Positions 6,324 through 56,335 of a stretch of DNA of 64,000 nucleotides are shown piece by piece. A model generated the notes under the pieces. That model saw only the letters and a program-made list of their open reading frames with translations, searched no databases and was not told the origin of the DNA. The stretch is from contig JBHJGN010000031.1 of NCBI GenBank assembly GCA_050331735.1, positions 111,747 to 175,746 of the forward strand. Reading direction: 5' to 3'. The first letter of the stretch is position 1. Each line of letters opens with the position of its first letter. A program made the translations under genes and the position numbers. This DNA is from Cyanophyceae cyanobacterium. GTDB taxonomy: Bacteria > Cyanobacteriota > Cyanobacteriia > Cyanobacteriales > JBHJGN01.

Positions 6324-9300
6324 ATGAAAACAGACTTATCTTCCCTGAAACCTTCTAACCCTGTTGCCACCCTCGTTTTTATCGATGCTGGAGTTAAAAA
6401 TTATCAACAGTTAGTTGATGGTGTTATTCCTAAAGCGGAAGTATTTGTCTTAGATGCAGCGGCTGATGGTGTTGAGCAAATTAGCCATGTTTTACAGCAG
6501 CGGCAGAATGTCGGAGCTGTTCATATCGTTTCTCACGGTGCGCCAGGTGGCTTGTACTTGGGTAACACCCGATTAAGTCTTGATACTTTCAGGCACTATG
6601 CCACTCAGCTACAGAAGTGGAAGGTAGTCAATCTCTTTCTCTACGGCTGTAACGTGGCTGCTGGGGACGCAGGTGAAGAGTTTATCGAGAAGCTGCACCA
6701 GCAGACAGGAGCAAGTATAGCAGCGTCGCGTCGAGTAATCGGTGACGGGTACTGGTTCCTAGATGTTAACCCTACAGGGACGACAGCACAGACCCCATTT
6801 GATGAAGCAGTTCTAGAAAGCTGGACAGGACGACTAGCGCTAAACATCAGCAATCTCAGTAACTCATCGTATACTGAGCAAGACCCCGCTATTATCCTAG
6901 ACAGTGATATCAGCTTCTCAGGTGGGACAAACTACAGCAGCGGCTATCTTGAGTTTAGTTTAAGCACCGCTACTGCGTCTGATTTTTTAAGTTTAGTTGC
7001 TGATGACAACATTTCTACCGCTAACAACCAGATTTCTATTGTTGCTAATACAGTTTATCTCGGCGATGGCAGCGAGGCAGCAGTAGTCGGTACCGTAGAT
7101 TCAACATTCGACGGTCAGAATGGAAAAAATCTACGGATTAACTTATCCACTAGTTTTCCAAACGGTAATTTCAACATTGGCTCGCCTGAAGACACAACCA
7201 TCACGAGTTGGACAACGGTAAACCAGCAGGTCAAATTTGGAAACGATACAATTGCTAACTTAACTACGCCCACCGACAGCACCATTCCCTCAGACTCTAA
7301 TGGGGACCAAAACACTCCTTCTAGCCCAGGGACGATGACGACAGTCCTTGATGCTACACAGAACGACGGAGGCGGAAATTCTCTTCGGCTCGCCTCTACA
7401 GGAATTACTACTGCCGAAGGATATGATATCGTTCGCGGTCCATACGTTTACAGTGATACGGCTATATCCTTGTCATCTGGCGACCAGGTGTCCTTTGAAT
7501 GGCAAGCTCAAGGGGGGGGAGATGCCTATGATATTTATGGCTACATTGTTGATATTAACAACAATCACATCGAAACTATTCTAGATGAAACAGGCAGTAG
7601 TGAATCTGCTGCTACTACTTGGGCAACGGAGACAATTACTGTTTCCCAAGCTGGTGAGTACAAATTTGTCTTTGTTGCCGGTACTTACGACTATTCTGGC
7701 GGTAAAGCTGCAGGAGCACAGCTCTACATTGACGATGTAACAGTTACTCAATCGGTCCCGTCCGCAGTTTTCGACGATACTCATGTATCTGCGCTCGCTC
7801 AGAGAGTGCAGTACAACAATACCTCAGATAGTCCTGAAACCTCAAAAACTCTCACTGTCTCCGTTCAAAACAGCGCTGATGAGATAGTAAGCGATACGGC
7901 AACCATTGATATTACGTTAGTAAACGATGCCCCCACTGCGCTTAGCCTCAGCAGCACCAGTATTAATGAGAACAGTGCGGCGGGAAGTGCAATCGGTACT
8001 TTCAGCAGCACTGACCCTGACGCGAGCGAGACCTTCACCTATACTCTAGTGGCTGGCACTGGAGATACGGATAACAGTGCCTTTACCATTGACAGCGACC
8101 AGCTTAAAATCATCGACTCCCCCGACTACGAAGCTAAGGATAGCTATAGCATTCACGTCCGCACCACAGATAGTGAGAACGAAATCTATGAAGAAGCGTT
8201 TACTATCAATGTCAACGATTTTAATAAAACACCCACTGCTATTGCTCTTGATAACAACCGGGTTAACGAGAATCAAAATAGCCGCACTCTCGTCGGTACT
8301 CTTTCTACCATTGATGCCGATGACGGCGACACTCATATTTACCAGCTCGTGGGTGGGGAGGAAGATACAGATAACAGTGCCTTTACCATCGATGGTAATC
8401 AACTGAAAACTAACACTCGGCTTAACTACGAAGCTAAATCCAGCTACAGCATTCGTATCCAAACCACAGATAGCGAGAGCGAAACCTACGAAAAAACCTT
8501 TACTATCAGCGTCAACAATCTCAACGAAATCCCCAGACTCAGTTTAATCAACACTAATACCTCCTTAGCTGAAGACATCGATACCAGCACTAGGATTAAG
8601 GTAGCAGACATCCGCATCTATGATGATGGTTTAGGAGCAGAAACCATTGCCCTGAGCGGCCCTAATGCCGACCTCTTCGAGCTGGATGGGAGAAAACTCT
8701 TTCTCAAAGCCGATACTCCTCTCAACCATGAAACCGAAGCTGAGTTAAACGTGCAGGTCTCGGTCAACGACTCCACCATCGGCTCCACACCAGACGATAC
8801 TGAATCCTTGGCAATCGCCATCAGCGATGTCAATGAAGCCCCCAGCCTCAGCTTCACTAACTCTACCGCTTCATTAGCCGAAGACACCGACACCAGCACT
8901 AGGATTAAGGTAGCTGATATTGTCATTAGTGATGATGCCCTCGGCAACAACACCTTAAGCCTCAGCGGGGAAGATGCTGAGAGCTTTGAAATTGACGACA
9001 GCGCTCTGTTCCTCAAAGCCAATACCCCCCTCGACTTTGAAACCCATCCTGAGCTATCGGTCTCGCTTAGCATCGATGATGCTACCTTGGGAGATGGAGC
9101 GGAAGCAACAGAATCCTACACCCTGAATCTGATTGATATGCCAGATGACGGCCTTGAAGGGGATATTAGCTTATTCTGGTCTAACCGCGCCACCGGAGAG
9201 AACCAGCTCTGGCTCTTCACGGGACTCCAGAGGCAGTCTGTGGTATTGCCCCTTACCGATACAGATTGGCAACTGCGAGACGTCGGAGACTTTAACGGAG

Positions 9301-9584
9301 ATGACCAGTACGACCTGCTCTGGCGACACTCGGCTACCGGAGAAAACGCTGTTTGGCTGATGAACGGCACTGACTTTATTCAAAGAAGTAGTTTGCGCTC
9401 TGCTTCCAACCTCGATTGGTCCCTGGTGGGCGCGGCAGACTTCAACGGAGATGACAAAGACGACCTACTCTGGCGACACGCGGCTACCGGGAAAAATGCT
9501 GTCTGGCTGATGGACGGCACGACTTTTATGAGCAGCAGTTCTCTGCCAGAATTCTCTGGGGCTGACTGGTCTGCGGTTGTTTAA
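6324..9584 (+). CDS. Large surface/adhesin protein: DUF4347, beta-rich module, four cadherin-like repeats, two FG-GAP-like repeats
   Basis: LVFIDAGV..HIVSHG..LYGCNVA (DUF4347); VNDAPT/VNEAP and D(Y/F)E cadherin motifs; GDFNGD..DLLWRH twice. Confidence 0.88.
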   Translation: MKTDLSSLKPSNPVATLVFIDAGVKNYQQLVDGVIPKAEVFVLDAAADGVEQISHVLQQRQNVGAVHIVSHGAPGGLYLGNTRLSLDTFRHYATQLQKWKVVNLFLYGCNVAAGDAGEEFIEKLHQQTGASIAASRRVIGDGYWFLDVNPTGTTAQTPFDEAVLESWTGRLALNISNLSNSSYTEQDPAIILDSDISFSGGTNYSSGYLEFSLSTATASDFLSLVADDNISTANNQISIVANTVYLGDGSEAAVVGTVDSTFDGQNGKNLRINLSTSFPNGNFNIGSPEDTTITSWTTVNQQVKFGNDTIANLTTPTDSTIPSDSNGDQNTPSSPGTMTTVLDATQNDGGGNSLRLASTGITTAEGYDIVRGPYVYSDTAISLSSGDQVSFEWQAQGGGDAYDIYGYIVDINNNHIETILDETGSSESAATTWATETITVSQAGEYKFVFVAGTYDYSGGKAAGAQLYIDDVTVTQSVPSAVFDDTHVSALAQRVQYNNTSDSPETSKTLTVSVQNSADEIVSDTATIDITLVNDAPTALSLSSTSINENSAAGSAIGTFSSTDPDASETFTYTLVAGTGDTDNSAFTIDSDQLKIIDSPDYEAKDSYSIHVRTTDSENEIYEEAFTINVNDFNKTPTAIALDNNRVNENQNSRTLVGTLSTIDADDGDTHIYQLVGGEEDTDNSAFTIDGNQLKTNTRLNYEAKSSYSIRIQTTDSESETYEKTFTISVNNLNEIPRLSLINTNTSLAEDIDTSTRIKVADIRIYDDGLGAETIALSGPNADLFELDGRKLFLKADTPLNHETEAELNVQVSVNDSTIGSTPDDTESLAIAISDVNEAPSLSFTNSTASLAEDTDTSTRIKVADIVISDDALGNNTLSLSGEDAESFEIDDSALFLKANTPLDFETHPELSVSLSIDDATLGDGAEATESYTLNLIDMPDDGLEGDISLFWSNRATGENQLWLFTGLQRQSVVLPLTDTDWQLRDVGDFNGDDQYDLLWRHSATGENAVWLMNGTDFIQRSSLRSASNLDWSLVGAADFNGDDKDDLLWRHAATGKNAVWLMDGTTFMSSSSLPEFSGADWSAVV

Positions 9585-9683
9585 TCGGCTCCATCACGGA
9601 GCACCCATTGAATAGCGAGAAGAGGGAATTTTCCCTTTCCCCCAATCTATAAATGAGTGCATCCACAACCAGGAACCGTCGTC

Positions 9684-9828
9684 TTATGCCAATTAGAAAA
9701 AGTCATCGGAGATGGGGGAAAGGGTCAGGGGGAAAGAGGAAAGGTAAGCACCGCAGCTCTTTCTCCTTGAACTTCCAATGCTTGGTTAGTTCGGGGAACT
9801 ATCTGACTACTTTCGGTCAATGGTATTA
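9684..9828. repeat. Dispersed MITE-like repeat, copy 2; right end overlaps the dapE stop codon
   Basis: TTATGCCAATT...AATGGTATTA imperfect terminal inverted repeats; internal similarity to copies 1 and 3. Confidence 0.78.
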
Positions 9829-11013
9829 GCTAAAAGAATCAAAAAACTTTTCAATGATTCTTTCATAAACACAGCAAAGCTCATACACATGAGCAATAGG
9901 AATATGCTCCCCCACCTGATGCATCGTATTATCCAACGGGCCATATTCAACCGTAACGCAGTGGGGCACAAGAAAACGGGCATCGGTAATTCCGCCATCG
10001 GTACTGAGACGGGGGCGACGGCCAGAAACCTCTGCCACCGCATCCTGCACAAGGCTGACAAAAGGATCTTCAGGATTCGTCCGAAATGCTTCCCCACTGA
10101 CGCGGAAGCGAACATCGTACTCAACGCCATAGGACCGAGCAAGGGGTTCAATCGTGTCCCGAATGAGCTGTTGTAACCCATTCCCCGTTTGCTCGTCGTT
10201 AAAGCGGATGTTGAAGCGCAGATTAACGGCGGCAGGAATGACGTTTTCCGCACAGGGAGCTGTTTCAAACTTAGTAAATTCTAGATTAGACGGTTCAAAC
10301 CACTCATTACCCTCGTCGAGAGGTAAATTTTGCAGCGCTGCTGCCATTGCCACCGCCGCCGGAACTGGATTGAGCACATTGCGCTGGTAGGCGACGTGTC
10401 CCTGCTTGCCTTTGATGGTAATAAAGGTATTGATGCTGCCGCGACGACCAATATGAACGCAGTCGCCCATCTCTAGCGGGTTCGTCGGTTCACCCACTAC
10501 GCAGGCATCAATCTTCTCGCCTCGCTGCTGTAGCCATTCCATCACGGGTTTCGTGCCGTTAATCGCTTCGTGCTCCTCGTCGCCCGTGATAATGAAGCTG
10601 AAAGACCCCTGGAAATCCTTCCTCTTCGCAAGCCACGCCGATACAGCAGCAATAAAGCAGCCAATTCCGGCTTTCATATCCACCGTGCCCCGTCCCCAGA
10701 GAATGCCGTCGCGGATTTCAGCCTTGTAGGGGTCGATATCACCCCAGCGCAGGCGATCGCCTTCTGGCACCACATCGGTATGTCCGGCAAAGGCGAGGTT
10801 TGGTTCGGCTGTTCCCAATCGGGCATAGAGATTATCCACTTCGTAGCTGCCGGGTTCGTTGTAAAATTTGAGGCGCTGGCAGGTAAAGCCGAGTAATTCC
10901 AGATGACGCTGCACCACATCCAACCCCCCGTGTCGATCCGGCGTGACGCTCGGTCTGCGGATCAGTTCTTGGGTTAACTTAACAGGATCGAAAACAGGAA
11001 CATTGACAAGCAT
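9826..11013 (-). CDS. dapE: Succinyl-diaminopimelate desuccinylase (M20A family), somewhat divergent
   Basis: NLYARLG, FAGHTDVVP, GRGTVDMK, GDEE, GEPT, GRRGS, QGHVAY, DARF, MHQ motifs. Confidence 0.88.
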   Translation of the reverse strand: MLVNVPVFDPVKLTQELIRRPSVTPDRHGGLDVVQRHLELLGFTCQRLKFYNEPGSYEVDNLYARLGTAEPNLAFAGHTDVVPEGDRLRWGDIDPYKAEIRDGILWGRGTVDMKAGIGCFIAAVSAWLAKRKDFQGSFSFIITGDEEHEAINGTKPVMEWLQQRGEKIDACVVGEPTNPLEMGDCVHIGRRGSINTFITIKGKQGHVAYQRNVLNPVPAAVAMAAALQNLPLDEGNEWFEPSNLEFTKFETAPCAENVIPAAVNLRFNIRFNDEQTGNGLQQLIRDTIEPLARSYGVEYDVRFRVSGEAFRTNPEDPFVSLVQDAVAEVSGRRPRLSTDGGITDARFLVPHCVTVEYGPLDNTMHQVGEHIPIAHVYELCCVYERIIEKFFDSFS

Positions 11014-11028
11014 GGCATCTCCTCAGAT

Positions 11029-11931
11029 TTAGACTGTAGACGGAGCAGTAGTTTGCTCAGTTACAAATTGCTTGTAAGCATCAATTAAACGAGTGGTGAC
11101 AGGACCGAAAGGTTCAAAACGATACTCGTCAATCTCACTTACCGACTCAATCTCGCAGGTAGTCCCAGTGAGAAAGACTTCCTGCGCTTGGGCGAGTTCT
11201 TCTAGCTTGATGTGGCGTTCAATAACAGAAATCTCTAATTTCTCCGCCAATTTCATAATAGTTTGCCGGGTAATGCCATTCAAAAAGCAATCCGGTATCG
11301 GCGTTAGCAAACTCCCATCGCGTACCAGAAATACGTTGGATGTGGTCGATTCAGCAATCAGCCCTCGATAGTCTAACATGAGAGCATCATCAAAGCCTTG
11401 TTGGACGGCTTCATCTTTGCTCATGGTGCAGATGGGGTAGAGACAAGCTGCCTTGCTCACCGTTGGTGCGGTCGTCGGATCGGGCTTGCGCCAGGGTACG
11501 TGGCGAGTCAGCTTCAGTGGCTTCTTGGTGTCAATATCAAATAGCGTCGTCGGGAATGACCAGGCAGCAATGCCAACGCAGATTGAGGTATCGGGGGCAT
11601 ATACCCGCAATCTTTCACTGCCGCGCCAAGCAAAATGGCGGATGTAGCCCACTTTAATATTTTCTCGCTCCAGCAGATTATTAGTGGCTTCGACAAGAGC
11701 ATCCAGCGCATAGGAAATGGTAAAACCAAGAATTTCAGCCGATTGATACAGGCGCTCCAGATGTTCAGCTAACAAAAACGGCTTGCCGTTATAGATGCGC
11801 ACTCCTTCAAATACACTACTAGCGTAATGCAGTCCGTGGGTGAGCGGGTGAATCGTGGCTTCTTTCCAAACAACTATGTTGCCATTCAGCCACAAAAACC
11901 CTTCCTTTTGATCGAACGGAAACAGAGACAT
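11029..11931 (-). CDS. PLP-dependent fold-type IV aminotransferase, branched-chain (IlvE)-like
   Basis: HGLHYASSVFEGVR, YIR, catalytic Lys in SKAACLY, AESTTSNVF, LNGITR, EVFLTGT. Confidence 0.88.
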   Translation of the reverse strand: MSLFPFDQKEGFLWLNGNIVVWKEATIHPLTHGLHYASSVFEGVRIYNGKPFLLAEHLERLYQSAEILGFTISYALDALVEATNNLLERENIKVGYIRHFAWRGSERLRVYAPDTSICVGIAAWSFPTTLFDIDTKKPLKLTRHVPWRKPDPTTAPTVSKAACLYPICTMSKDEAVQQGFDDALMLDYRGLIAESTTSNVFLVRDGSLLTPIPDCFLNGITRQTIMKLAEKLEISVIERHIKLEELAQAQEVFLTGTTCEIESVSEIDEYRFEPFGPVTTRLIDAYKQFVTEQTTAPSTV

Positions 11932-11992
11932 AGAGAATCTTCTTTGGAGTGAATTGTTCGACGTGATCGCTATTAATAAACAGAGGGAACAG

Positions 11993-12144
11993 GAGTTTGC
12001 GTCGAACGGGGAAATTGTCCGGTGCGGGACGGGTAAGGGTTAAAGAACACAGAGTTAAGAAAACTAATTTATTCACCCTTTCCCCCTTCCCCTTTCCCCT
12101 TTCCCCGTCGCGGAGCGACTTCTTTCCCTGCGCCTGCGGCGCTA
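11993..12144. repeat. Mini-hairpin / heptamer mosaic repeat with inverted purine and pyrimidine arms
   Basis: GTCCGGTGCGGGACGGG...AAAGAACACAGAGTTAAGAAA...(TTCCCC)n...GTCGCGGAGCGAC...GCGCCTGCGGCGCTA; abuts the dapD stop. Confidence 0.78.
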
Positions 12145-12996
12145 ATTCCGCAACAGTTCGTTAATCGATGTTTTAGAACGGGTTTTGTCATCAACCGTTT
12201 TGACAATCACGTTGCAGTACAGGCTTGGACCCGGTGAGCCATCGGGAAGCGGTTTGCCGGGTAGGGTGCCGGGAACAACAACTGCATAGGGAGGAATTTC
12301 CCCGTAGAAAATCTTGCCAGTGGTGCGATCGACGATTTTAGTAGACTGACTGAGATGAACGCCGATCCCCAAAACGGCTCCTTCGCGGACAATCACACCC
12401 TCAGCCACTTCGCTTTGACCGCCAACAAACACATTATCTTCGATAATTACTGGATTGGCCTGAAGCGGTTCGAGAACGCCACCAATGACGACTCCAGAGG
12501 ACAAATGGCATCCTTGGCCGATTTGGGCGCAGGAACCGACAGTGACGTAGCTATCCACCATCGTTCCGGTATCAATATAGGCCCCGATGTTGACAAAGCT
12601 AGGCATTAGCACAACATCTCTCGCGACATAGGAACCGCGACGGACGACGCAATTGGGAACGGCTCGAAATCCAGCGCGAGTAAAGTCATCCTGAGTCCAG
12701 CCGGAAAACTTGGACGGCACTTTATCAAACCAGGGCGCTTCTTTGAGAGCCTGAGATTGCAGACCACTGGCGATGACGGCAGATTGATTCAAACGGAAAG
12801 ACAGCAGCACAGCCTTTTTAAGCCACTGATTTACTACCCAGTCATTCCCGGATTTTTCAGCAACACGATATTGACCGCTATCTAATCCTGCTATGGCGTG
12901 TTCGACAGCCTCGCGTATTTCCCCTGACGTTTCTGCGTTAACGCTACTGCGGTTTTCCCAAGCCGTATCGATCGTTGTTGTCTGTGTTGTGTCCAT
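12142..12996 (-). CDS. dapD: 2,3,4,5-tetrahydropyridine-2,6-dicarboxylate N-succinyltransferase
   Basis: [62 protein letters not shown] at 12996 gives 284 aa. Confidence 0.95.
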
Positions 12997-13091
12997 CTCG
13001 TCTTTACTTAAATCCACTACTGCTAATCTGAGAGTCAATTCTTCAAATGGTATCGCTAACGGGGAAAGGGGGGAAGGGGAGCGATCGCCGA

Positions 13092-15170
13092 TTACTGCTT
13101 CAGCGGTTGACCGTTGCTCCGTAACAGCTCTAACCCAGCGGCTACTACCGTTTCTGGCGCTATGTCTAAACACTCTAAACTGTAGGGACAGGTAAAGGCA
13201 TAGCAGGGACTACAGACAGTCGGACGACGCAATAACTTTACGTCTGTTGCTCTCGGTTGCCACTGACACTCTAATTCAGTTCCGGCAAACAGAATCACGG
13301 CAGGGGTGCGTGTGGCATCGGCAATGTGCATGGTGGAGGTGTTATTAGTCAGCACCAGACGCGCCTGAGCAATCAAAGCTGTGAGTTCGCTTAAAGTCGT
13401 TTTCCCAATTGAGTCAACGGCGCGATCGCCCAAAAATTCTAGCAGAGGACGAGAGCGATCGCGGTCTTTGGCTACGCCGGTGACGACCACTGGCCACCCT
13501 GTCTGTTCACTGAGTTGCCGTGCCGCTTCCGCAAAGCGCATCCCCTCATAGTTGCGAGACTGGCAGCTTGTCCAGGGGTTGAGCAAGATGTAGGAACCCG
13601 ATACGCCGTTAGAGGTGGGGACATGCAGAGAGAGGTGGCGATCGCAAACCCTAAACCCGACAGACTCGATCAGGCGAAGGTTGCGCTCAACTTGATGGGT
13701 GCAATCGGGGGCTGATGCCACCTCATGAGTGAGAATTCCCAAACCCCGCTCCTTTGATTCTCCTAGGCGAAGAGGAATTCCGGCCAGATAACAAATTAAG
13801 GCAGGCGGATGAGGACTCTGACTGAAGCTAGTGAAGATAATTGCCGCATCAAATTGACGAGCAGCTAATGTATCAATCAGTTGCCATTCTCGTTCCGGGT
13901 CAAAATCTAATCGTCCTAAGTCTTGCCAGAGAACGCGCCAGGGCAGCACCTCATCTACCCAAGGTAGGAGAGAAGCCGTGAGCGCACCGCCGGGACTCGC
14001 CATTAACGTTAGCTGAGCGTGAGGCAAATTTTCTTGAATCGCCCGCAAAGCTGGACTAGTCATAATCACATCTCCAATGTTGTCCAGCCGCATCACCAGG
14101 ATGTTACGAGCACTAGACCACTCTGAGAGCAACGATTGAGGAGGAAACTCTCTCTGACTCTCTACCCCCTGACGACTAACCACTAATCCCGTCCCTCTCA
14201 ACACCCTCTCCGCCTCAGCCACGACTGCTTGAGGAGACACCGCTTCGGTGCAGGTCTCCCACTCAAAGGGACAAACCCCACTGTACCAGCAGGACTGTTG
14301 CGTAAAATTGCTAATGATGCGTTCCGGACATTCGGGATATCCCTGCAAATTAATGTGAGGGGTGGGGTGCCCGTAGCGTTCGTGCCAGGAGGGACCAAAC
14401 AGAGTAATCGTCGGTACATCAAGGGCGACGGCAATTCTCACCGGTCCTGTATCAGCGCCAATCACTAAATCGGCGTTGGCCATCGCTGCCGCTAGCTTTC
14501 GCAGGGTTCCTCGCGGCCAGACGTAGGCATCACCTCCAATGGCAGAGGCAATCGCTTGGGCTTGTTTATCTTCGCTTTCCACCACAAAGATGGTGCCGCC
14601 CTGCTGCTGAAGTGCTTTGCCGAGGGCAACAAACTTATCTGGGGACCAGCGCTTAATTGACATTCCGGCATCGGGAATGAGGAAAATGAGGGGACGGTAT
14701 GCTGCTCCCAAAGCTTGTTCTGCCTGCGCCTTTTCTGTCCGAGAGAGTTCGATCAGCGGATGTTGGTTTTGAACACTATCGGGGGTAATTAACCCCTCTT
14801 CAAGCAGAATTTGGAGAAAGCGATCACCCACTCGCTGGTGCGCAGGAGGATTACGCCAGAGATTGGTAACGGTTCTCTTGGCTGCCTTTGCAACAACGTC
14901 AGCAATGCCTTCGTAGTTGGTATCAGAAACAATTAAATCAAACCCTTGCTGAACCAGTTCCTCAACGGCTTGACGAGCTTGGCCTTTTTGAGCAACGACA
15001 ATTTGAGCGATTAGACTATTTTTCTGCAATAAGTCCGCAGCGGGGGAGAAAGTCAGCACCGTGAGGCGAGCTTGAGGATGACTGAGGGCCAAGGCTTTGA
15101 TAGCAGGAAGGGCAATGAGTCCGTCTCCAATTCCGCCCAATAACTCTATAAATAGAATCTTCTGGATCAA
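13092..15170 (-). CDS. Tandem fusion of two glycosyltransferase family 9 domains
   Basis: Two GT9 units: LGGIGD..ALPAI..DTGP and [24 protein letters not shown], each ending in a Cys-rich tail. Confidence 0.88.
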
Positions 15171-45267: not shown

Positions 45268-46623
45268 ATGGAAAAGCTCTCTCCCGAACTACAGACCTTA
45301 CACGCAACTTTAGTAGAACAGGGCGTTAAGTATGCGCTAGCTAGCTACGTTGATGTTCACGGCATCTGCAAGGCCAAAGCAGTTCCCCTGGCACACTTTG
45401 CTCAGATGATGCAGGGAGCGGAGTTGTTTACCGGAGCCGCCCTGGATGGCGTTCCCCAAGCTGTCAATGATGAGGAAGTGTCGGCAAGACCTGACCCCGA
45501 TACCGCTACAGTCCTTCCCTGGAACCCAGAAATTGTCTGGTTCGCTAGCGATCTGTATTTGCAGGGGAAGCCGTTTAGCGCCTGCTGCCGAACGATCTTA
45601 AAAAAAGTCCTCAATCAGGCCGCTCAAATGGGTTTAGGCTTTAATTTGGGGATTGAAACGGAATTTTTTATCCTCAAAGACGCTAACGGTCAGGCTGTCC
45701 CGGTGAGCGATCGCGATACGCTAGCTAAACCCTGTTACGACCTCACCGGATTGCTCGATAACTACCCGTGGGTGAGCGAAATTGTCGAGACCATGAATCA
45801 ACTGGGATGGGATGTCTACTCCTTCGACCATGAAGATGCTAACGGTCAGTTTGAAACGGATTTTGCCTACTGCGATGCCCTGAAAATGGCGGACCGTTTA
45901 ACATTTTTTCGGTTGATGGTTAAGGAAATTGCCCGCAGACACGGCCATTTTGCCAGCTTTATGCCCAAGCCCTTTGGCGATCGCACGGGCAGCGGCGCTC
46001 ACTATAATATGTCTCTCTACGATATTAATACGGGTGAGAACTTATTTACTAGCAGTGACGATCCCCGTGGCTGTGGACTATCAAAGCTCGGCTATCAGTT
46101 TATCGCTGGAGTGCTGAAACATGCAGCGGCGGTATGTGCCGTGATTGCGCCCACCGTAAACAGCTACAAACGATTGATCCCGAGAGGCAGTATGTCGGGG
46201 TTTACCTGGGCTCCTGTCTATATTTGCTACGGCAACAACAACCGCACCAATATGCTGAGGATTCCCCTAGGCGGGGGGCGAGTTGAGTGCAGAGCTGCCG
46301 ATATTTCCAATAATCTATATTTAGGAGCTGCCATGATTTTAGCAGCAGGTTTAGAAGGAATCAGAGAAGATCTAGCTCCAGGGGAACTCCATACCGAAAA
46401 TATGTATGAATATTCTCCAGAAGAACTCAAGATGAAGGGCATTGATACCTTACCCCGTACCCTTGGCGAGGCCATTGAAGCCTTTGCCGCCGATCCTCTC
46501 AGTCAGTTAGTGATGGGAGACTTGATGTATCAGACCTACGTAGATTTCAAATCCCAGGAGTGGCAGGAGTACCATAACCACATTTCTGATTGGGAACGAG
46601 AGCGGTATTTGAAGTTTTTTTAG
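45268..46623 (+). CDS. glnT: GlnT-type glutamate-ammonia ligase family protein (gamma-glutamylamide synthetase-like)
   Basis: YVDVHGICKAKAVP, GIETEFF, DHEDANGQFE, FMPKPF..TGSGAH, PTVNSYKRL, NNRTNMLR, RVECR. Confidence 0.82.
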   Translation: MEKLSPELQTLHATLVEQGVKYALASYVDVHGICKAKAVPLAHFAQMMQGAELFTGAALDGVPQAVNDEEVSARPDPDTATVLPWNPEIVWFASDLYLQGKPFSACCRTILKKVLNQAAQMGLGFNLGIETEFFILKDANGQAVPVSDRDTLAKPCYDLTGLLDNYPWVSEIVETMNQLGWDVYSFDHEDANGQFETDFAYCDALKMADRLTFFRLMVKEIARRHGHFASFMPKPFGDRTGSGAHYNMSLYDINTGENLFTSSDDPRGCGLSKLGYQFIAGVLKHAAAVCAVIAPTVNSYKRLIPRGSMSGFTWAPVYICYGNNNRTNMLRIPLGGGRVECRAADISNNLYLGAAMILAAGLEGIREDLAPGELHTENMYEYSPEELKMKGIDTLPRTLGEAIEAFAADPLSQLVMGDLMYQTYVDFKSQEWQEYHNHISDWERERYLKFF

Positions 46624-54774: not shown

Positions 54775-55755
54775 ATGAGCGATCGCCAAGCCGTTGTTCA
54801 ATCTCTTAATCAGCTAGGGAGTCAAAAAATCCCCTTCTTGTTTATCTTAGATTTCGAGCTAAAATCACCAATAATCTATCCGCTAAAAGAGCTAAATGCC
54901 AGAAGCGACATTCTTTATCAAGTGCTCGATGCTCGAAATTTTTCTTTAACTGATGTATTAGCTTATCACTCCCTCAGTCTCAAGAAAAATCCCCTATCTT
55001 TCACCCAATACAAACGTGCCTTCGATCAGGTTCAAGAGGCAATCAAGCGGGGAAATAGTTTTCTGGTTAACTTAACGTTTCCAACAGAAATTACCATAAA
55101 CGCAACCCTAAAGGAACTCTTTTACCGGAGTCAGGCAAAGTATAAACTGTGGGTTGAAGATCGGTTTGTCGTTTTTTCTCCAGAAACCTTTGTCGAGATA
55201 AAGGCGGGAACTATATATACTTATCCAATGAAAGGAACGATTGATGCCGCCGTTGACAATGCAGAGGCCGTTATCTTAGCAGATGAAAAAGAAATGGCCG
55301 AGCATGTTACCATCGTAGACTTACTTAGAAATGATTTAAGTATTTATGCAAAGAAGGTCAAAGTAGATAAATTTCGCTATTTGGAATCGATAGAAACTAA
55401 TTCGGGAAAGCTATTGCAGGTCAGTTCGCAAATCAGTGGAAAACTTCCTCCTGATTATCACTGCAAGTTAGGAAACATTCTCGTCAGCTTACTCCCGGCA
55501 GGCTCCATTAGCGGTGCGCCTAAAGCCAAAACGCTAGAAATTATTCGAGCGGCAGAAGGGTATCAGCGAGGATACTATTCTGGGGTATTTGGCATCTTTG
55601 ATGGAACAGATCTGAGAAGTGCAGTAATGATTAGGTTTATTGAAAAAATCGGCAACAAATATTATTTTAAAAGCGGCGGTGGCATCACCATCTTTAGCGA
55701 AGTGGAAAAAGAGTATCAGGAACTGCTCCAAAAAGTGTATGTGCCAATTGTTTGA
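54775..55755 (+). CDS. pabB: Aminodeoxychorismate synthase component I (short form)
   Basis: FSPETF, TYPMKGT, KEMAEHVTIVDLLRNDL, PAGSISGAPK, RGYYSG, SGGGIT. Confidence 0.88.
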   Translation: MSDRQAVVQSLNQLGSQKIPFLFILDFELKSPIIYPLKELNARSDILYQVLDARNFSLTDVLAYHSLSLKKNPLSFTQYKRAFDQVQEAIKRGNSFLVNLTFPTEITINATLKELFYRSQAKYKLWVEDRFVVFSPETFVEIKAGTIYTYPMKGTIDAAVDNAEAVILADEKEMAEHVTIVDLLRNDLSIYAKKVKVDKFRYLESIETNSGKLLQVSSQISGKLPPDYHCKLGNILVSLLPAGSISGAPKAKTLEIIRAAEGYQRGYYSGVFGIFDGTDLRSAVMIRFIEKIGNKYYFKSGGGITIFSEVEKEYQELLQKVYVPIV

Positions 55756-56335
55756 AAGCATTAAAGTATACCGTCACGAAATTTACAACCTGCCCTATCA
55801 TGAAGATCGCGTTAACCGCTCCAGGGCTGAACTATGGAAGATCGAGGAACCAGTAAATTGGCAGCAGCAGCTTACAATTCCTGCTCATCTGGGAGAAGGA
55901 CTGTACAAATGCCGCGTTACTTACGGTCCCGAAATTCAGCGAGTAGAGTTTCTCTCCTATCGAGCCACTCCTATCCGGTCGCTGAAGATTGTCTGTGACG
56001 ATATGATCGCATATACTCACAAATATCAGGACCGACAGGCTTTGCTGAGTCTACGAGAACAGCGGGGAAACTGTGACGATATTCTGATTGTTAAGAATCA
56101 CTGGGTTACAGATACTTCTTACTGTAACGTTGCTTGTTGGAGTGGAGAAAAATGGTACACTCCTGCCAAGCCTCTATTAGCAGGAACCCAAAGAGCATCG
56201 TTAATTGCTCAAGAAATTGTTCACGAAGAAGATATTCGTATTCAAGACCTCAATAAATTTAAGAAGCTTAAATTGATCAATGCTCTATTAGATTTTGAAT
56301 CAGCACCTGTTATTCCTATTTCGTGCATTTTGTAG
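55739..56335 (+). CDS. Aminotransferase class IV family, probable 4-amino-4-deoxychorismate lyase
   Basis: LFESIK, YHEDR, HKYQDR, VTDTSYCNV, PLLAGTQRA; overlaps the pabB end. Confidence 0.8.
   Translation: MCQLFESIKVYRHEIYNLPYHEDRVNRSRAELWKIEEPVNWQQQLTIPAHLGEGLYKCRVTYGPEIQRVEFLSYRATPIRSLKIVCDDMIAYTHKYQDRQALLSLREQRGNCDDILIVKNHWVTDTSYCNVACWSGEKWYTPAKPLLAGTQRASLIAQEIVHEEDIRIQDLNKFKKLKLINALLDFESAPVIPISCIL

Follow-up and report, generated by a model that had tools for sequence, protein, structure and literature searches.

A mobile dapD-aminotransferase-dapE cassette, the probable replacement of DapL in a few cyanobacteria, with a candidate fold-type-IV N-succinyl-LL-diaminopimelate aminotransferase

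DapL is regarded as the route by which cyanobacteria and plants make lysine and the diaminopimelate (DAP) of peptidoglycan, and it has been discussed as a narrow-spectrum target (PMC4176475; PMC3102117). The Synechocystis enzyme, sll0480, has been characterised experimentally, as described in PMC4176475, which also states for the proteobacterial succinylase branch (DapD, DapC or ArgD, DapE) that an amino transfer is needed between the DapD and DapE steps. Here, we describe a succinylase-type cassette in a cyanobacterium. It lies in a stretch of 64,000 nucleotides (nt), hereafter the window, from contig JBHJGN010000031.1 of the Cyanophyceae assembly GCA_050331735.1, and consists of dapD, a gene for a fold-type-IV aminotransferase that we call AT4, and dapE. 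Its role would be that of DapL in cyanobacteria, plants and Chlamydia, namely the conversion of tetrahydrodipicolinate (THDP) to LL-DAP, but where DapL needs one step, the cassette would need three, with succinylated intermediates. The elements of the cassette are as follows (window positions; lengths of proteins in amino acids, aa):

12142..12996, minus strand: dapD, tetrahydrodipicolinate N-succinyltransferase; 284 aa from the ATG at 12996; TIGR00965, PF14805
11932..12141, minus strand: dapD-AT4 spacer; 210 nt, G-rich, with GGGGAAA-type repeats
11029..11931, minus strand: AT4, fold-type-IV aminotransferase resembling branched-chain aminotransferases (BCATs), candidate N-succinyl-LL-diaminopimelate aminotransferase; 300 aa; PF01063
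9826..11013, minus strand: dapE, N-succinyl-LL-diaminopimelate desuccinylase (M20); 395 aa; NF009557, TIGR01246

The open reading frame (ORF) listing agrees with the original prediction of three co-oriented genes in pathway order, with 15 nt (11014-11028) between AT4 and dapE, and places all three on the minus strand; all the motifs quoted in the prediction for AT4 and DapE are found in the translations. The open frame of dapD (12142..13173) extends past the ATG at 12996 and overlaps the end of an upstream glycosyltransferase gene. The contig is cyanobacterial; the window also encodes a cyanobacterial-type SigC (NF005785, 683 bits; TIGR02997, 430 bits), hisZ and a HetL-like pentapeptide protein.

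The cassette resembles the proteobacterial succinylase branch in its pathway gene order and in its first and last enzymes, both of which pass equivalog cut-offs. DapD scores 383.5 bits on TIGR00965 (NCBIfam cut-off 375.4) and combines an N-terminal THDPS domain (THDPS_N_2, PF14805) with the hexapeptide repeats (PF00132, PF14602) of a left-handed beta-helix; its gene is single-copy in the host genome. DapE passes both NF009557 (443.2 bits, cut-off 284) and TIGR01246 (389 bits, cut-off 361.8), contains Peptidase_M20 (PF01546) and M20_dimer (PF07687) domains, and aligns to solved DapE structures with E = 2e-83, retaining the H, D, EE, E and H motifs (AGHTD, DMK, DEE, GEP and HQxxEH). Unlike the proteobacterial branch, however, the cassette resides in a cyanobacterium, its DapE departs from outside homologues at two sites where these hardly vary, and its aminotransferase has fold type IV.

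No DapL was found in the host genome (99.98% complete, 99 contigs), where the best match to TIGR03542 reaches 140.5 bits against a cut-off of 364.7, and a tblastn search for a remnant, using a relative's DapL, returned only generic aminotransferases with at most 28% identity. Nor did we find a meso-DAP dehydrogenase (Ddh) in this genome. It does encode DapF (321 bits) and, separately from AT4, a canonical IlvE (NF005146, 356 bits, cut-off 279), so the genome check suggested in the original prediction shows a missing DapL together with a dapF and a separate ilvE. To place this among relatives, we used 40 genomes from 38 families of the same order (41 genomes with the host). DapL is above cut-off in 34 of the 40, in keeping with the earlier premise that cyanobacteria normally use it, and dapD in none. 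In larger samples, the host included, dapD passes in 2/401 genomes from the order and 1/401 from the phylum. Among the seven genomes that carry the cassette (the host G000, G419-G423 and G589), DapL is above cut-off in none, while dapF is intact in six; the seventh is also without a canonical ilvE and may be incomplete. We consider it very probable that a mobile dapD-AT4-dapE cassette replaced DapL in these few, mostly marine, filamentous cyanobacteria.

Two further observations concern DapL itself. One of the cassette genomes contains a 93-aa open frame (G421:C269:17454-17723, minus strand) with a strong match (125.8 bits) to the final 90 positions of the DapL model. It may be what remains of a gene, a piece cut off at a contig end, or contamination. 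Two relatives, G024 (99% complete) and G018 (94%), have neither a DapL above cut-off nor dapD. Both encode an extra class-I aminotransferase scoring about 190 bits on the DapL model (G024:C114:28511-29632; G018:C74:16786-17907), which may be a diverged DapL or belong to yet another route.

A scan of species-representative genomes yielded five further cyanobacterial loci whose AT4 is 77-83% identical, four of them in marine metagenome-assembled genomes and one in Leptothoe sp. PORK10 BA2. AT4 has dapD directly upstream in all five, and in 7/7 carriers in total, while dapE follows it in five of the seven; of the other two carriers, one has dapE on a different contig and one has a contig that stops after AT4. 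The seventh carrier, G589, has the complete trio in the same order. The gene order is therefore conserved elsewhere, with the full trio in four other cyanobacterial genomes and dapD-AT4 in six.

The surroundings of the cassette are not shared. Outside the trio, no ORF of at least 120 aa in positions 1-26000 of the window has a counterpart in the related loci L053-L057 at E<=1e-15, and the only extra match in the G589 locus (L157) is a response regulator of 34% identity. L055, L056 and L057 alone share two upstream genes among themselves. G589 is the sole holder of dapD among 61 genomes of its family, of which 39 belong to its own genus, and its congener G034 has DapL (603.5 bits) and no dapD. 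The flanks of the G589 cassette match congeners best (67-81% nucleotide identity), whereas the trio itself matches only G422 and the host among the five genomes compared. Because the flanks differ by lineage and G589 stands alone in its family, the cassette is mobile between cyanobacteria. A further pointer is that DapF, taken as a marker of the host lineage, is 61-69% identical between the host and the other carriers and the trio proteins 76-88%, although proteins differ in evolutionary rate and this gap is only suggestive of mobility. No integrase or transposase genes were found beside the cassette among 36 flanking proteins (33 from five related loci and 3 from the window).

In G589, the genome with the clearest recent acquisition, a tRNA-Asp gene is found some 230 nt past dapE (L157 7175-7248, plus strand), and may mark the integration site. 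In L055, from which dapE has departed, the gene after AT4 is sodium/glutamate-symporter-like and on the opposite strand (9012-10463, minus strand; PF03616, E = 2e-12).

The middle gene was predicted to be of fold type IV and outside the DapC family, and its NCBIfam and Pfam matches bear this out. AT4 scores 173.8 bits on Aminotran_4 (PF01063); searches against NCBIfam and Pfam gave matches to fold-type-IV families only, and none to the fold-type-I families TIGR03537, TIGR03538 and TIGR03539 or to ArgD. The best NCBIfam match, the BCAT family NF005726/PRK07544, reaches 372.7 bits with a cut-off of 396, NF005146 reaches 266.5 (cut-off 279), and TIGR01122 (ilvE_I) is barely passed, with 247.2 against 245.55. 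Models of D-amino-acid transaminases are missed by far (NF005209, 134.8 vs 320; TIGR01121, 132.5 vs 277.45). AT4 nevertheless aligns to solved BCATs with E = 5.6e-50 to 4.5e-47, and shares with E. coli BCAT the catalytic lysine (K160, equivalent to K159), E194 (E193), Y36/F41/G43/R45 (Y31/F36/G38/R40) and Y96/R98 (Y95/R97).

AT4 has the fold and core of E. coli IlvE in common (PDB 1I1K, 1IYE, 1A3G; E = 4.5e-47), but its O-pocket loop reads G-S-E-R-L-R-V-Y-A-P rather than G-D-V-G-M-G-V-N-P-P, its interdomain loop S-F-P-T-T-L-F rather than P-W-G-A-Y-L-G, and its beta-turn GTTC rather than GTAA. In BCATs, the O-pocket accommodates the side chain of the substrate and, for glutamate, the gamma-carboxylate, according to PMC8320979. 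We compared 50 cyanobacterial AT4 clusters with 70 outside clusters and found 31 positions that separate the two groups, of which 12 fall within 57 positions of active-site elements (odds ratio 3.1, one-sided Fisher p = 0.0055); the set of elements was our choice from those given for E. coli BCAT in Table 2 of PMC8320979. In the O-pocket loop (G104-S-E-R-L-R-V110), which is contributed by the neighbouring subunit, the main changes are M108L, A109R, S111Y and Q113P; in the interdomain loop they are W126F, Y129T and F130L; and in the beta-turn they are A258T and A259C, both fixed in the clade. P99H lies beside R98, and G163C and M166P are further changes, M166P falling just outside the listed elements. 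In place of the canonical hydrophobic pocket of BCATs (O-pocket loop M-G-V, interdomain W126/Y129, beta-turn GTAA), AT4 has L108-R109-V110, F126, T129 and G-T-T-C, fixed in 46-50 of the 50 cyanobacterial clusters.

The original prediction singled out an added arginine in this loop. The residue is real, R109 being present in 50/50 cyanobacterial clusters where 63/70 outside clusters have alanine, and position 107 is also arginine in 37/50. It is not diagnostic by itself, however, since arginine or lysine occupies position 109 in 29 of 150 diverse BCAT-like representatives, and we rejected Arg109 as a unique marker.

The nearest outside relatives, PRK07544-type BCATs with alphaproteobacterial named members, are 52-58% identical to AT4 and have the catalytic lysine, E194, Y36/F41/G43/R45 and Y96/R98 in common with it. 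They differ from it in several respects: AT4 scores below the family cut-off, makes up a clade of its own with a long stem and carries about 20 clade-fixed changes (21 at 144 conserved positions in our count), and it is linked to dap genes where they are not (0/80 loci). AT4 is under purifying selection, with a ratio of nonsynonymous to synonymous substitution rates (dN/dS) of 0.106 in the one pair with unsaturated dS, the remaining pairs being saturated; dapD gives 0.012 in the one such pair, and all three cassette genes are under purifying selection. As a separate canonical ilvE is present in the host, and in four of five other carriers tested, AT4 is not needed as IlvE.

Gene context and pocket anatomy together incline us, with reserve, to the view that AT4 is the N-succinyl-LL-DAP aminotransferase of the cassette. 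DapD would succinylate ring-opened THDP with succinyl-CoA, and AT4 would then transfer the amino group of L-glutamate to C6 of N-succinyl-L-2-amino-6-oxopimelate, with the L-specific geometry of BCATs. The alpha-carboxylate site would be kept, while an O-pocket widened by W126F and Y129T and made more basic by R109, usually R107, and H99 would offer room for a long dicarboxylate side chain. A wider and more basic pocket is what one would expect for this substrate, whose side chain has two carboxylates. DapE would then strip off the succinate, and the host's DapF and LysA would complete the pathway. The substrate, amino donor and stereochemistry of AT4 in this scheme are those that we infer from gene context and the pocket changes.

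Several findings count against this role for AT4. Its BCAT catalytic core is intact, with all hallmark residues in place and the ilvE_I cut-off just passed, and basic residues at position 109 are, as noted, not rare among diverse BCAT-like proteins. Nor is divergence peculiar to AT4, for DapD and DapE bear clade-fixed changes too (14 at 169 conserved positions and 16 at 139, respectively). The host also has other enzymes that could provide the amino transfer: an ArgD above cut-off (531.8 bits), and two class-I aminotransferases related to DapC and DapL, one of the PRK07366 type (NF005613, 715.8 bits, cut-off 486; C29:24905-26095) and one of the PRK05942 type (NF004611, 815.9 bits), which NCBIfam names LL-diaminopimelate aminotransferase and aspartate aminotransferase. 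Furthermore, should the cassette move as a block, it might keep a passenger gene for some time, and with outside homologues only 52-58% identical and the sister group open, an unsampled donor could have had the trio together with a housekeeping BCAT.

These points converge on the main rival, in which the cassette provides DapD and DapE only. ArgD supplies DapC activity in E. coli, and the host's ArgD or one of its class-I aminotransferases would do the same here, while AT4 would be a diverged BCAT paralogue with some other amino acid as its substrate, travelling along with its neighbours. The retained core, the TIGR01122 score and the frequency of R/K at position 109 in the superfamily (29/150) would all suit such a paralogue, as would the presence of ArgD, PRK07366-type and PRK05942-type enzymes in the genome. 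A mere fellow traveller, however, sits oddly with a gene that has stayed beside dapD in 7/7 genomes, including where dapE has departed, while the flanks turned over completely, and that is under purifying selection in genomes where a canonical ilvE already exists. It is also at odds with the lack of dap linkage at all 80 sampled loci of the nearest outside homologues and with the clustering of the pocket changes in substrate-binding elements. We regard transamination by a host enzyme as a real possibility, and as a clearly less probable one than transamination by AT4.

The second rival starts from DapE, whose deviations (D145-E-E-H-E-A150, T338-D-G-G-I-T-D-A-R-F347 and E356-Y-G-P359) had been pointed out in the original prediction and are genuine. 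G148H, T342I, S343T and D368G are fixed in 10/10 cyanobacterial clusters, and the usual residue is found in 101-108 of 108 outside homologues (threonine at position 342 in 107/108 and serine at 343 in 108/108). G148H lies beside the catalytic glutamate pair, and T342I and S343T lie inside the GGTSD motif. In a docking model of Haemophilus influenzae DapE, A136 and T325 touch the DAP moiety at its free amino group and its carboxylates, as reported in PMC5919655. Their equivalents, assigned by motif rather than by direct alignment to the H. influenzae chain, deviate in the cassette enzyme, where H148 and I342-T343 replace G/A and T-S. These changes would leave room for a slightly different intermediate, while the retention of dapF favours the ordinary LL product. 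DapE acts specifically on the LL isomer.

AT4 and DapE might accordingly be co-adapted to a non-canonical intermediate, for example one with a D-centre at C6, so that AT4 would form N-succinyl-meso-DAP and a DapE with H148 and I342 would release meso-DAP, bypassing DapF. Fold type IV is also the fold of D-amino-acid transaminases, whose carboxylate trap is built from residues of the O-pocket loop (as set out in PMC8320979), the very loop in which AT4 gained an arginine, and the altered DapE positions correspond to the DAP-part contacts of the docking model (PMC5919655). Against this, dapF is intact in six of the seven cassette genomes, which weakens the earlier idea of a route to a different DAP stereoisomer; AT4 keeps the BCAT-type alpha-carboxylate site of the L mode (R45, Y96 and G43) and scores far below the D-amino-acid transaminase cut-offs; and a small P-pocket would be unlikely to fit the long succinylated chain. 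We think co-adaptation to such an intermediate improbable. Slightly less credible still is the proposal that the cassette is not the main DAP route, that the PRK07366-type aminotransferase, called an LL-diaminopimelate aminotransferase by the model it passes so clearly, replaces DapL, and that the trio has some other or redundant role, since that family occurs in 38/41 genomes, DapL keepers among them, and so does not explain the loss of DapL and is not a specific compensation for it, whereas DapL loss coincides with the cassette in 7/7 genomes and all three of its genes are under purifying selection.

Replacement of DapL by a mobile cassette would mean that an essential step is exchangeable in nature, and carriers of the cassette would be indifferent to DapL inhibitors. 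The DapC step remains a gap in some genome reconstructions made with GapMind (Table 1 of PMC7311316). If AT4 does transaminate the succinylated intermediate, it would be a non-homologous solution for that step and the first DapC of fold type IV, as well as a BCAT scaffold that nature has adapted to a long dicarboxylic keto acid, and of interest in biocatalysis as such. Were the meso-DAP reading true instead, the cassette would add a fifth, DapF-independent variant of the DAP pathway. Our literature search, which reached few subscription journals, found no paper on a cyanobacterial succinylase route or on a fold-type-IV DapC.

The module was also predicted to be horizontally acquired, and the rarity of dapD in our samples, with the nearest outside relatives of all three proteins alphaproteobacterial, supports a foreign origin. 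The closest homologues of all three belong to named cyanobacteria. Identity to cyanobacterial clusters is 72-83% for AT4, 78-87% for DapD and 78-88% for DapE, and then drops sharply to 52-58%, 66-72% and 48-54%, respectively, for outside homologues, whose named members are alphaproteobacterial. The notion of AT4 as the uniquely fast-evolving gene of the three is unsupported, given these DapE values and the fixed changes that DapE also has. In the tree, the cassette AT4 proteins form a single clade (SH-aLRT 100) with a stem of 0.8 substitutions per site, which shares an unresolved fork with an alphaproteobacterial-type clade and is not nested within it. For this reason, we claim alphaproteobacteria only as the nearest known relatives and name no donor.

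Two candidate sources were considered and set aside. Transfer of the whole block from alphaproteobacteria was not seen: dapD or dapE occurred near AT4's nearest non-cyanobacterial homologues (46-55% identity) in 0/80 metagenome loci, 44 of which have at least 1.5 kb on both sides, and two annotated alphaproteobacterial dapD loci had no AT4 or dapE within 5 kb in the incomplete gene tables of PLSDB; this is a small sample of homologues that are only 46-55% identical. Members of the phylum of the non-photosynthetic type were rejected as donors, as the dapD of 24 further phylum members is distant (258-303 bits, 42-48% identity) and has no AT4 beside it.

The supply of succinyl-CoA to DapD is a related matter. 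Cyanobacteria make succinyl-CoA via SucCD, and the host encodes an adjoining sucC-like and sucD-like pair (G000:C66; L158 2847-5038, minus strand) whose products, of 424 and 300 aa, score 162 bits (cut-off 375.55) and about 211-212 bits (cut-off 353.2). They are candidate subunits of a succinyl-CoA synthetase; if this diverged pair were not, the source of DapD's succinyl-CoA would come into question.

Little of a regulatory nature emerged from the locus. An Rfam scan of positions 9000-14000 found no lysine riboswitch, its single match being a sub-threshold chance one, and nothing at gathering score in the dapD-AT4 spacer. Predicted promoters and terminators were equal in number to those in shuffled sequence or fewer, making that scan uninformative on operon structure. 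When the seven dapD-AT4 spacers (about 60-333 nt) were aligned, mean column identity was 39% with 1 invariant column; the spacer is unconserved, and so offers no candidate regulatory element. Its repeats are specific to the lineage, with GGGGAAA-type runs in the window (11932-12141) and palindromic CCCCTTGG...GGGG units in Leptothoe-type loci, which suggests repeated small insertions that did not part dapD from AT4. The repeat-bearing dapD-AT4 spacers in the other loci are:

L055 7668-8000
L056 7756-8000
L057 4677-4974

Upstream of dapD in the window, 13092-15170 (minus strand) encodes a 692-aa protein with two GT9 heptosyltransferase-like halves (TIGR02193, TIGR02195 and TIGR02201 all match), unrelated to the cassette. 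Downstream of dapE, 6324-9584 (plus strand) encodes a protein of 1086 aa whose DUF4347 domain is N-terminal and whose FG-GAP repeats are C-terminal; it also has cadherin repeats, and no NCBIfam model matches it. Farther away, a second Aminotran_4-like ORF of 198 aa (55739-56335, plus strand) overlaps the end of a pabB-type aminodeoxychorismate synthase gene (54775-55755, plus strand; NF005486, 468.9 bits); no NCBIfam model matched it at E<=1e-20, and it is probably a reduced PabC-like lyase. Finally, 45268-46623 (plus strand) encodes a type III glutamine synthetase (TIGR03105, 575 bits), located upstream of a set of genes for a BMP-family ABC transporter.

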